NCBI RefSeq assembly: GCF_003019035.1
Contig: NZ_CP027448.1
DNA from: Escherichia coli
GTDB lineage: Bacteria; Pseudomonadota; Gammaproteobacteria; Enterobacterales; Enterobacteriaceae
Direction: 5' to 3' (one strand)
DNA length: 64,000 nt
The first letter of the stretch is position 1; every line of letters starts with the position of its first letter. Made by a program: the position numbers. This document shows, piece by piece, positions 6,150-12,100 of this stretch.

Positions 6150-9100
6150 TGACGCTCATCACACAGTTGTTTGACCCATCTTGTCATTGTGGAAAGGCCA
6201 ACATCCATAGCTTGAGCGGCATCTGCCACCGTGTAGTTCTGGTCAACAACCAGTTGAGCGGATTCGCGTTTAAACTCTGCGCTGAAATTTCTTTTTTTCA
6301 TTGGAACACCTGTCTTGTTCTGAGGTGAGCATATCACCTCTCTTCAGGTGGCCAAATTCAGTGTGCCACTTCATGAAGGACTAGCGTATGGTAATGAGCC
6401 ACATCCCTGTAGACATCTCCTGTTTACATTCAGAAAAACGTCTGATTATTTTGCCAATTATAGAGTGTGATATATAAAACCTTAGTTCAGTGGATGAGGC
6501 AGTAATGCTCATTACTTCAGCAAGATTCAGGGCTTCACTGAAAAATTGAGGCGAATTCTGTTACGGTTTTTCTTACTGGTTGATACTGCTTTTGTCCTAT
6601 GAGTCATCTCTGACTGAGAATTTACTTTCTGAATGGAGTCTCCGCTAACTGAGAAAGAGCACTATGAAGTTTTCAGTTGTCATAGCTGACTGCTCAAGCA
6701 TTAAATGCTGATATTTTTAATACTCCTCAACTCAAACAACTGAGTATTCAGAATATCTCTTCTTCTTTCATATTCAGAAAGCATATCAGCGGTCTTTTTG
6801 TCCGTGTTTTGTGCATCTTTCTGTAGGCTTTCTGCTTGTTTAATTAACAACCATGCCTCCTTTAGAGATATACAAAAAGAATCAGCATCAGCAAATAGCA
6901 TTCTGCTCTGTATATGCAACCTGATTGCATCATATCCGGCTATTTCAATACGAAATCCGTATTCCTTCAGAGCTGCTAGTGAAAGGCGAAAATCTTGTTG
7001 CAAAGTGTCAGCAGAAGTTAAATTTATGGTGTTAAGTTTTTCAAGGTGTTTAACTATTTCTTCTTTGGCATCGATCGCTTCAGTTAGGAGTTTTCTTGAT
7101 TTAGTGATCTTCTTCTCATTTTCTTTAAGTTTCACTCTAAGAGTATCTTTGTATTCCGTTATTTCCTTATTTCTCTTTTCTATAAAACTTTGGTTGATAA
7201 TCAAGTCATTTTCATATTGAGTGTTTTTATTCCAAAAGGAACTCCATGAAGGTGGTATATCAGAAAATATATCAATATTGGGAGGCATTACATAAATGTC
7301 TATAATTTGATGACTATCAGAATCATACTCAATAGATTCTTTACACTGATTTAAAGTATGGAGATGTGACAGCATTCTCCCACTCCTTCTGTACTGTAAT
7401 AAGAAATAAAGTTACTGTTTATGTGTGAGAATTCATATTATTCATGAAAAAACCATGTCAAGATATAATCTTGAACAAGATTTTACAACACATATGAGTA
7501 ATTTAATTTTTATATATAATTCCATTTATTACAAAAGTCAACAGAATATAATCAATGAAATTTATTCTTTATGTTATTGATACTGATGGATTTCTATAGG
7601 TCAGCAACCATATGGGTATTTCACCTACGGTAAAATAGATGTTCCACTTGGTGATATTTTGTAATATAGATCACAAAAATAAAGAATGTTGTATAAGCTT
7701 AACACCATTTTCATTTGTAATAATGATTATTAAATTCAATTTGATAGTAGCTTATGTGCGATTATTGATAGATAAAGACTATATGATTAATAGTCTAATT
7801 CTTTTGCATGATTGTGGTAATTTTTATATATAGAGGGAAATTTATTTAACACTGGAGCAATGTAATATGATAAAGAAAACACTATCTATCTTAATTGTCT
7901 TAGCTCTCTCGGGTAATCTGCCTACTGCTATTGCAGATGCAAAAAACAACTCAGATAAATTTTATTATCCTACAACTCTTGATTTATCACCATTAAGATT
8001 ACACAGCCCAGAGTCAAATCCATATGGGCCGGACTTTAATTATGCTGCCAGATTTAATAATCTGGATATGGAAGCACTGAAAAAAGATATAAGAAATTTA
8101 CTAACTAGCTCTCAGGAATGGTGGCCAGCAGATTATGGTAACTATGGTCCTTTCTTCATTCGAATGGCTTGGCATGGTGCTGGAACATACCGTACATACG
8201 ATGGTCGAGGTGGTGCAAGTGGTGGTCAGCAGCGTTTTGAACCGTTGAACAGCTGGCCTGATAACGTTAATCTGGATAAAGCCCGCAGGCTGCTATGGCC
8301 GATCAAAAAGAAATACGGATCTAGTATTTCTTGGGGAGACTTAATGGTTCTTACGGGAAATGTGGCTCTTGAATCAATGGGATTTAAGACTCTGGGATTT
8401 GCCGGTGGTAGGGAAGATGACTGGGAGTCGGACTTGGTCTACTGGGGGCCAGGAAATAAGCCTTTATCAGATAACAGGGATAAAAAAGGAAAACTTCAGA
8501 AACCTCTGGCCGCCACTCAGATGGGACTTATTTATGTAAATCCTGAGGGGCCTGGAGGAAACCCGGATCCTATGGCGTCCGCTAAAGATATACGGGAAGC
8601 TTTTTCCCGTATGGCTATGGATGATGAGGAAACAGTTGCTCTAATTGCAGGTGGACATACGTTCGGTAAAGCACACGGTGCTGCCTCACCTGAAAAATGC
8701 CTTGGTCCTGCACCTGATGGGGCTGCTCTGGAAGAACAGGGACTGGGATGGAAGAACAAATGTGGAAGCGGTAATGGAAAGGATACTATATCCAGTGGTC
8801 TGGAGGGAGCTTGGTCAACCTCCCCAACACAGTTTACAATGCAATATCTGAAAAATTTATATAAATATGACTGGGAATTGCATAAAAGCCCTGCAGGAGC
8901 CTATCAGTGGAAACCTAAAAATGCAGCTAATATTGTACAGGATGCACATGATCCTTCCGTATTGCATCCTCTTATGATGTTTACCACAGATATTGCTCTT
9001 AAAGTAGATCCTGAGTATAAAAAAATAACAACCCGCTTTTTGAATGATCCAAAAGCTTTTGAGCAGGCGTTTGCTAGAGCATGGTTTAAACTGACACACC

Positions 9101-12100
9101 GTGATATGGGGCCTGCGGCTAGATATATTGGTAATGATATTCCTGAAGAAACATTTATCTGGCAGGATCCTCTTCCTTCCGCTGATTATACTATGATTGA
9201 CCATAATGATATTCAATACTTGAAAGAGAAGATACTAAGTTCCGGTATTCCGACTTCTGAATTAATAAAGACAGCTTGGGCTTCTGCCTCAACATTCCGT
9301 GGAACAGATTACCGTGGCGGAAGTAATGGTGCCCGTATTCGCCTTCAACCAGAAAAGGACTGGGAAGTAAATGAACCAGAAAAACTAAAAACTGTACTGG
9401 AATCCCTGAGCTCAATACAGTCAGAATTTAATAAAAAACAGCAAGATAATAAGAAGGTTTCTCTGGCAGATCTCATTGTTCTGGCAGGTAATGCGGCAAT
9501 AGAAGATGGCGCCAAGAAGGCGGGGGTAAACCTAGAAATACCGTTCACACCAGGAAGAACGGATGCATCTCAGGAGCAGACAGATATTGTTTCGTTCAGT
9601 GTGCTGGAACCAACAGCTGATGGATTTAGAAATTATTATTCAAAAAGCAAAAGCCATAATTCACCAGTAGATAGTCTGGTTGATAAGGCCAGTAAACTCA
9701 ATTTGACTGTTCCTGAAATGACCGTATTGTTAGGTGGTTTACGTGTTATGGACATCAATACAGACCATTCTGCTAGGGGCGTGTTTACTGAAACACCGGG
9801 AGTTCTTGATAATCAGTTCTTCATTAACTTACTGGATATGTCAACCCGATGGAGTAAGTCAGATAAAGATGAAGATACTTATAATGGATATGATCGCCAT
9901 ACTGGTAAACAAAAATGGACAGCATCATCAGTAGATTTAATATTCAGCTCAAATCCTGAATTACGTGCAGTAGCGGAGGTTTATGCTTCTGATGATGGCC
10001 GTGATAAATTTATTCACGACTTTGTTAATGCATGGAATAAAGTCATGAATAATGATCGATTTGATTTATTAAAAAAATAATAGACTAACAGGGGGGGAAG
10101 ATCCCCCCTTAATATTGGATGAAATATGAAAAATACCAAAATAATCATGATTAGTGGCATTATGGCATTATATATGTTAGGAACTACTATTTCATATGCT
10201 AACAGTCTTGCAGATAATATGCAGATTCTTGCAGAAAACCTATCAGTCCTTCAGTCATCAACAGATAAAAATGAGTTGCTAACAGCATTGGATCTTATGA
10301 ATAAAGCAGTTGATGAGTCAATGAATATTCTTCCTGTAAAACTCTCTCCAGATGATAAAAAAGGTGCGGATGATTATATAAATGGATTAAAAATGCTTAA
10401 AAATGAAATTGGAATTATAAGAGAGAGTATATCAAACGGTAACCTTTCTAATATTAATGACTCAGTCAGTAAGATTAATAATATTCGAATAGAAAACCAT
10501 AAAAAATTCAGATGATTATTTTATTATAACCTGCATGTAAGATAATGGAGTCATACATTATTGTATGATGTTGGATATACAATATCTACGTTTTTATGGG
10601 AAAGAGCTACTTTTACATATTAATAGTTATACAGAAGACGTTATCCAATGAGCCGTATTAATAGATAAGTTTAAATATCCTATCCAGGACAACAGTTCGC
10701 ATACTTGGTTTGCCGGCTAGTCCTGGATATATTTAATGAGGTAACACAGATATTTTTCTGTCTTCTACTATATGTACATTAATTCCGTGATAGCATTTAT
10801 TCTGAGTAACATACTTAATACCTCTGAGATTAGGTCAAAGTATCGGACTGACGTACACATCAGTGAAGTGGTCAACAAAAGCTGGCCACCGAGTTAAAGT
10901 TTTTCCAGGATCGATTTTCCGTAAGCGTCAACGGAGCACCGTATTGACGCTTATTTATTAGTGAGAACCACGTTCCATGACAGGAGTTCGTCAACACGGT
11001 TGGAGGGCCATTCCGGCAGTACGCTCAGAATATGGCGCAGATATGCTTCCGGATCGATACCGAAGAACACGTAGACTGCACGAAGCGCTCTTTCCGCTGT
11101 GTTATTGTCCGCCTCCGCCATACCGTCATCACTGTAATAACAGAGGGTGTCCCACTGATTCAGGATATAGCTGAACGTTTCGCCAGTCTGGATTTTTTCG
11201 GCAGCGTGCCATTCTTCTCCACCATCCATTCATGTAGCGACGTCAGTAACGCTTTGCTTCGCTGCTGCCTGACTGCAAGACGCTCTGACTCTGGTAATCC
11301 CCGTATTTCATCCTCGATGGCGTACAGTTCACTGATTCGCTTCAGGGCTTCTTCTGCCGTCGCACTTTTGCTGCTGATGTATACATCGTGGATTTTTCGC
11401 CGGGCATGGGCCCAGCACGCAACTTCTGTCAGTGCACCACCTTCACGTTCTGCACTGAACAACCTGTCGTAACCTGTGAACGCATCCGCCTGCAGGATAC
11501 CCCGGAAGGGGCGGAGGTGTTGCTCCGGGGGTTTCCCTTGCCGGTTCGGCGAGTACGCGAACCAGACCGCCGGAGGAGATGACGAACCCGCATTGCGATC
11601 ATCCCGGACATACGTCCAGATACGCCCTGTTTTCGCCTTTTTCTGACCCGGTGCCAGTACCTTTACCGGTGTGTCATCAGTGTGAACCTTGCGGGTATTC
11701 ATCACATAACGGTACAGGGCATCATTCAGCGGCGTCATTAACTGGCAGCACGCGTCAACCCAGTTGGAGAGTAATGCATCCGGCGCACAATCAGCTCTCC
11801 TGTACAGTCGCTGACGTGGCTAATGTACACACGGTAGTCGTAACTTACGGGGAGAGCCATAAACCAGCCTGCCTGTCTCTGGAGGAGACTAAGTCGGTTT
11901 ACATCGTCATTGAGAAAAATTCCGTTCCATATGTCGTTCATGAGTCTCATCCTGTAAAAGCAGTGATCGCTGTGGTGAGACTGTTGCGCGTTTTTATTCA
12001 GAGACTGACATCTAAATTTAGCTACTCCGACCATTGTTATTGCAAGATTAAAAAGTCACTCGGTTTAGCCAGTTTCAAATGTCACCTGAAGTGACATGGA

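Follow-up and report, generated by a model that had tools for sequence, protein, structure and literature searches.

A divergent cytochrome b562 gene paired with katP on Escherichia coli plasmids: a candidate periplasmic redox partner for a catalase-peroxidase

Few model haem proteins have been studied as much as cytochrome b562, which receptor structural biologists also use, under the name BRIL, as a standard fusion partner; haem is bound non-covalently in the b562 family, and to our knowledge no physiological role has been assigned to the canonical protein. We likewise know of no natural electron donor for the peroxidase activity of the catalase-peroxidase KatG. Genes for the two kinds of protein have been recorded as neighbours in Yersinia, whose catalase-peroxidase KatY is reportedly about 75% identical to the KatP of Escherichia coli. 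In Y. pestis, katY-cybC-cybB (YPO3319-3321) was predicted to be an operon from co-expression (r > 0.90) and found on a single mRNA by reverse transcription PCR (RT-PCR) (PMC2231364), and it has again been treated as an operon elsewhere (PMC10673613). In Y. pseudotuberculosis exposed to H2O2, katG, cybB, and cybC were up 6.8, 7.5, and 6.7 log2-fold, respectively (bioRxiv 10.64898/2026.03.04.709318), and in iron-starved Y. pestis CybC (y0869/y0870 operon with KatY) was up 4.7-fold and KatY down to 0.23 (PMC2835676). On plasmid pO157, the b562 homologue L7018 was detected as a protein and was up 6.3-fold in infected piglets (PMC3686733), and control of katP by OxyR has been reported (Uhlich 2009, as cited in PMC5363993). 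Here, a gene pair of this kind is analyzed in a 64,000-nucleotide stretch of E. coli DNA (RefSeq assembly GCF_003019035.1, contig NZ_CP027448.1; hereafter the window). The gene name in RefSeq and the operon type in Yersinia were already on record; what is added is the strict pairing across the KatP group, the co-inheritance of the two genes at unequal evolutionary rates, an intervening hairpin conserved as a structure, and an OxyR-type site conserved in position.

The two genes lie on one strand, a 737-aa open reading frame (ORF) being followed, after a 45-nt gap, by a 129-aa ORF with a signal peptide, as the original prediction had described. RefSeq names them katG (WP_032215196.1) and "cytochrome b562" (WP_032215195.1), respectively. 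The genes and the haem ligands of the smaller product are as follows.

7867-10080, plus strand: katP-like catalase-peroxidase gene, 737 aa (PF00141, E 1.6e-76; NCBIfam catalase/peroxidase, 1220 bits)
10126-10515, plus strand: cytochrome b562-family gene, 129 aa; predicted signal peptide, residues 1-25 (10126-10200); mature protein, 104 aa
10219-10221 and 10498-10500, plus strand: predicted axial haem ligands Met32 and His125, respectively, from the family alignment

The 129-aa ORF is identified by sequence and structural model as a divergent cytochrome b562, predicted to be exported by the Sec route and to form a four-helix bundle in the periplasm. It matches Pfam PF07361 over profile positions 2-102 of 102, scoring 60.6 bits where the cut-off is 30 (E 2.5e-16), and its closest solved structures are those of Salmonella and E. 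coli b562 (4er9, E 3.9e-7; also 256b/1qpu). The AlphaFold2 model, with a mean predicted local distance difference test (pLDDT) score of 80.6, contains four helices (residues 22-44, 48-68, 75-103, and 110-128), and a Foldseek search with it returned the b562 structures 4er9, 1qq3, and 256b first, at target-normalised template modelling (TM) scores of 0.82-0.84. The N-terminus reads as Sec-type (basic MKNTK, a 17-residue hydrophobic core, and SYA/N), and a signal-like N-terminal segment is kept in all members of the subfamily. The KatP-like protein also appears to bear an N-terminal Sec-type signal peptide (approximately residues 1-23, AIA/D). Because the mature b562 protein is predicted to start with NSLADNM, its axial methionine is mature residue 7, as in E. 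coli b562, and the C-terminus (ENHKKFR) retains the axial histidine. An alignment of 31 family sequences has only six invariant columns, Met32 and His125 being two of them, and one non-covalent haem b is predicted to be bound via Met7 and the histidine equivalent to His102 of E. coli b562.

The protein shares with CybC of E. coli and Salmonella (256b and 4er9) the Pfam family, a signal peptide, the Met7 and His102 ligands, and the four-helix bundle, and it is similar in size and isoelectric point (104 versus 106 aa, 5.3 versus 5.4). However, it is only 22-24% identical to CybC, its loop between helices 2 and 3 is shorter by two residues, and it adjoins katP, whereas canonical cybC adjoins pmbA. 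With the NCBIfam CybC equivalog NF011632, it scores 72.7 bits, below the cut-off of 130. On sequence grounds, it is thus assigned to a paralogous b562 subfamily and is not CybC itself. The original prediction had guessed at a periplasmic partner in haem or redox handling without recognizing what the protein was; with its assignment to a family of haem proteins by sequence and model, that guess gains support in a hedged form.

The b562 family is small, with 108 clusters (50% identity) in a set of 1.84 billion representatives, and the exact 129-aa protein occurs on 605 public contigs. Other homologues were found at L097:5001-5384 and L103:4001-4390, in leading or transfer regions of F-like plasmids where no catalase-peroxidase is close by; one has an SLT lytic transglycosylase gene on one side and psiA/psiB on the other, the second has a TraG_N gene in its vicinity, and the named members of their cluster come from Salmonella. 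A suspected KatG-b562 fusion, the 792-aa P0161, was rejected, since its sequence is not a KatG but a membrane protein of several domains that ends in two b562-like ones.

With regard to the pairing itself, a b562 gene lies 28-53 nt 3′ of a KatP relative in all nine related loci examined, which come from E. coli plasmids and chromosome, Citrobacter, and pO157 and whose KatP proteins are 75-89% identical to that of the window. Conservation downstream of katP homologues had been named as the way to check the earlier proposal, and the b562 ORF was found directly 3′ of every examined KatP relative of at least 75% identity. A KatG of 730-738 aa with a signal peptide is encoded directly 5′ of b562 in the window and in loci L002, L003, L086, L088, L090, L093, and L096; in L084 and L087, the gene 5′ of b562 is cut by the contig end. 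On pO157 of strain Sakai, the b562 homologue begins 43 nt past katP (KatP 86% and b562 50% identical to those of the window), and the same pair was found on an E. coli chromosomal island (85% and 48%), in a second E. coli lineage (P0125; 77% and 31%), in a Citrobacter chromosomal form (P0126; 75% and 34%), and in a sequence labelled Citrobacter freundii. Among plasmid records, 466 contain katP-type DNA and 478 contain pO157-type b562 DNA. The flanks of the pair differ at every locus and include insertion sequences and fimbrial, two-partner secretion, and ParE toxin genes, from which it follows that the pair moves as a cassette. In the window, the cassette is plasmid-borne with insertion sequences on both sides, remnants of an IS66 transposase lying 3′ of b562. 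The nearest outgroups of the subfamily (P0122, P0127, and P0147) are not next to katG, and the linkage is therefore not family-wide.

The two genes also share a history. Synonymous divergence (dS) is alike for katP and b562 in the same locus pairs (1.44 and 1.44; 0.21 and 0.23), and hence they have been inherited together. The b562 ORF is a genuine gene under purifying selection, and so is katP: the ratio of nonsynonymous to synonymous divergence (dN/dS) is approximately 0.05 for katP; b562 gives values of 0.13-0.31 inside the subfamily and of 0.24-0.56 in comparisons with the two most distant loci.

In its layout, the locus is of the katY-cybC(-cybB) operon type minus cybB. As in Yersinia katY(katG)-cybC-cybB, the b562 gene comes immediately after, and on the strand of, a gene for a catalase-peroxidase with a signal peptide, but the third gene, cybB, which encodes a membrane cytochrome b561, is missing from the window, where the IS66 remnants stand instead. 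The pO157 katP-L7018 locus has the same two-gene layout, the hairpin, and the same position of the OxyR-like site, and differs in that its b562 protein is only half identical to that of the window. The Sakai copy of this b562 gene (L002:5180-5569; NC_002128.1 / AB011549.2) contains an in-frame TAG at codon 16, in the part encoding the signal peptide. Over the b562 stretch, most of the other katP plasmids are 99.8% identical to Sakai, with one base changed, and their annotation shows an intact "cytochrome b562"; in the intact allele P0034, the corresponding codon encodes Tyr. The Sakai TAG stems either from a nonsense mutation particular to this strain or from an error in early sequencing.

Several candidate regulatory features were located 5′ of katP and between the two genes.

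7768-7804, plus strand: OxyR-type motif ATAG-N7-CTAT-N7-ATAG-N7-CTtT, with one mismatch to the consensus, ending 62 nt 5′ of the katP ATG
7804-7832, plus strand: putative sigma-70 promoter, read by inspection, with -35 TTGCAT (7804-7809), a 17-nt spacer, and -10 TATATA (7827-7832)
10090-10110, plus strand: intercistronic GC-rich hairpin AGGGGGGGA-AGA-TCCCCCCTT, with arms at 10090-10098 and 10102-10110 (9 bp)
10117-10120, plus strand: putative weak ribosome-binding site GGAT for b562, likewise read by inspection

The OxyR-type motif, scored against the consensus ATAG-N7-CTAT-N7-ATAG-N7-CTAT, is the sole match in the window, and no match was obtained in 100 shuffles. In five other KatP loci, the best match has 3-4 mismatches and lies 61-63 nt from the ATG; a motif kept in this position agrees with the reported OxyR control of pO157 katP. 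The predicted site directly adjoins the -35 element, an arrangement that would fit the promoter layout of the OxyR regulon, and TTGCAT and TATA(T/C)A recur at equivalent positions in L002, L003, L086, L088, and L090. A consensus promoter scan did not list the TTGCAT/TATATA pair, since it demands T at the sixth -10 position, and the promoter-like sites that it returned for the region were not above chance (13 versus 14.2 expected). The same scan gave no separate promoter above chance before b562 or in the 45-nt spacer. By analogy with Yersinia, we infer that the pair in the window is co-transcribed, on the grounds of homology, spacing, conservation, and this lack of a separate promoter.

A hairpin that might terminate transcription in part had been pointed out between the genes. 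The structure is real; it begins 9 nt past the katP stop and ends 15 nt ahead of the b562 ATG, with a folding energy of approximately -16 to -17 kcal/mol (z = -2.6 versus shuffles). A terminator scan picks it out, scoring 5 T 3′ of the stem, where a marginal T-rich tail is present (CTTAATATTG), and such sites in the region number 2 versus 2.3 expected. An equivalent hairpin of 7-11 bp occurs in nine of ten loci, with differing sequences that include A-U/G-C and G-C/C-G swaps; these stems were compared locus by locus by script, as a MAFFT alignment of the intergenic regions left the hairpins out of register. A T-rich tail follows the hairpin only in the window and one other locus, and in eight of the nine hairpin-bearing loci there are 0-3 T in the 8 nt after the stem, that is, no U-tract. 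The recurrence of the stem thus lends a little weight to partial termination and the missing U-tract speaks against it. Since the structure is kept and the tail mostly is not, the hairpin resembles a stem-loop for processing, stabilising, or attenuating the transcript more than it does a canonical terminator. An Rfam search of positions 7400-11000 returned only a sub-threshold chance match (SraG, 24.6 bits versus 50). Just 5′ of the hairpin, an in-frame TAG (10081-10083) directly adjoins the katP stop TAA (10078-10080) to make a tandem stop. At the position of the window GGAT, relatives carry AAGGAG or AAGGA. In iron-starved Y. pestis, the opposite shifts of CybC and KatY from one operon imply post-transcriptional uncoupling, to which an intercistronic stem-loop like that of the window could contribute.

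It is proposed, tentatively and with slightly less than even confidence, that katP and b562 form a mobile unit transcribed from a single OxyR-activated promoter, in which the cytochrome serves as the redox partner of KatP. One promoter 5′ of katP would yield a transcript of both genes, with transcription reading through the stem-loop without a U-tract or the RNA being processed there. Ferrous b562 would act in the periplasm by passing electrons one at a time to KatP in its oxidised states (compound I/II or protein radicals off the pathway), a supply that would keep KatP turning over as a peroxidase/catalase. The cytochrome would in turn be re-reduced from the quinol pool via a membrane cytochrome b561, which could be the cybB product in the Yersinia operon; for the window, a chromosomal b561 would have to serve. 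This role is favoured because the His/Met ligation is invariant, as would suit an electron carrier, and because the Yersinia operon includes a b561 gene. The broader generalization, that katP-linked b562 paralogues are dedicated physiological electron donors in a chain from quinol through membrane b561 and soluble b562 to KatP, is conceivable but doubtful. A literature search found no paper testing a functional link between b562 and KatP.

In bacterial Ccp systems, electrons of the quinol pool reach a periplasmic haem peroxidase through a small soluble cytochrome c. The KatP-b562 pair may resemble them as a working analogy only, in combining a periplasmic haem peroxidase with a small cytochrome, since neither KatG, a class I enzyme, nor the haem b four-helix bundle that would be its donor belongs to a family related to Ccp or cytochrome c. 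The linkage of b562 to katP is strict on the virulence plasmids of Shiga-toxin E. coli, in Citrobacter, and in Yersinia, at a locus with peroxide-type regulatory signals. If b562 is indeed an electron donor, periplasmic H2O2 would be reduced at the expense of the quinol pool, or KatP would be rescued from inactive oxidised states; this would provide the first physiological function for the cytochrome b562 family and identify the long-sought natural reductant for KatG-type peroxidase activity.

A number of observations weigh against the redox-partner proposal. Among the matches listed in a genome-wide KatP scan, a set from which Yersinia and other close relatives are absent, none of 80 more distant KatG loci (57-66% identical, from many phyla) has a b562 gene within 3 kb, and the partner is therefore no general requirement of KatG; some of these 80 listed matches align with the query from its N-terminus. 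No cybB-like gene was called 3′ of b562 in the window, L003, L086, L088, L090, L093, or L096, and the ribosome-binding site of the window b562 is weak. The cytochrome evolves 4-5 times faster than KatP (31-53% versus 75-89% identity), which is unlike what a tight docking partner predicts. In addition, the CybC/KatY pattern under iron starvation in Y. pestis can be explained no less well by a haem or iron function.

The last point leads to the main rival, namely that b562 delivers haem to apo-KatP or captures haem from peroxide-damaged KatP, which we consider rather unlikely. Both proteins bear Sec signal peptides, and KatP, exported unfolded by the Sec route, has to gain its haem b in the periplasm, where a protein that binds haem reversibly and non-covalently could supply it. 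Such a role would need no b561 gene in the E. coli and Citrobacter cassettes, and it accords with a b562 that evolves fast yet retains its ligands. In Y. pestis, CybC rises in iron starvation with the haemin-uptake proteins HmuT and HmuS while KatY falls (PMC2835676), and these data fit haem delivery or capture better than the redox-partner role. However, other periplasmic haem-b proteins, and E. coli b562 itself, acquire their haem with no partner devoted to the task, and the more distant KatG loci among the matches listed have no b562 nearby. Moreover, six-coordinate His/Met ligation is usual for electron carriers and not for haem donors, and the Yersinia operon adds cybB, which encodes a membrane electron-transfer cytochrome.

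Less likely than haem handling are two further readings, one of functionally independent proteins and one of separate transcription. In the first, which we regard as unlikely, the b562 paralogue has a general periplasmic role in redox processes or oxidative stress, is encoded on the OxyR-controlled transcript together with katP, and does not act on KatP. The canonical protein has no physiological role known to us, b562 homologues also occur without katG, beside pmbA or in transfer and leading regions of plasmids, and selection on b562 is relaxed relative to katP (dN/dS mostly 0.13-0.31 versus about 0.05). Yet the pair has stayed adjacent past saturating dS (>1) and through repeated moves among flanks, plasmids, and chromosomes, which is hard to explain without a joint function. 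The second, that the hairpin is an efficient katP terminator and b562 is silent or has its own promoter inside the 3′ end of katP, is very improbable: the terminator-like call on the window hairpin with its 5 T, a promoter-like site at 9916-9944, and the opposite shifts of KatY and CybC protein levels in Y. pestis (PMC2835676) stand against the lack of a conserved T-rich tail (eight of nine hairpin loci have 0-3 T in the 8 nt past the stem), promoter-like sites no more frequent than chance (13 versus 14.2 expected), a single Y. pestis mRNA by RT-PCR (PMC2231364), and a pO157 homologue that is made as a protein (PMC3686733).

As for the wider setting, the DNA of the window is 99.9-100% identical to IncFII-type E. 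coli plasmids of 140-164 kb from cattle and farm isolates. Divergent from katP lies an ORF of 224 aa (6701-7375, minus strand; WP_064734886.1), annotated as hypothetical, of low G+C and coiled-coil-looking, for which no match was found in NCBIfam at E <= 0.01. A gene for a TIR-domain protein (12197-12901, minus strand; WP_032215193.1) is located between IS66 and ISNCY elements, 1.7 kb 3′ of the cassette. Farther away, at 1-3009, 22437-25968, and 36890-40789, two autotransporter genes (one frameshifted), a heptosyltransferase gene, and a gene for an S6-family (SPATE-like) protease sit amid many decayed insertion sequences. The plasmid is a virulence-plasmid mosaic, similar to pO157 yet distinct from it.

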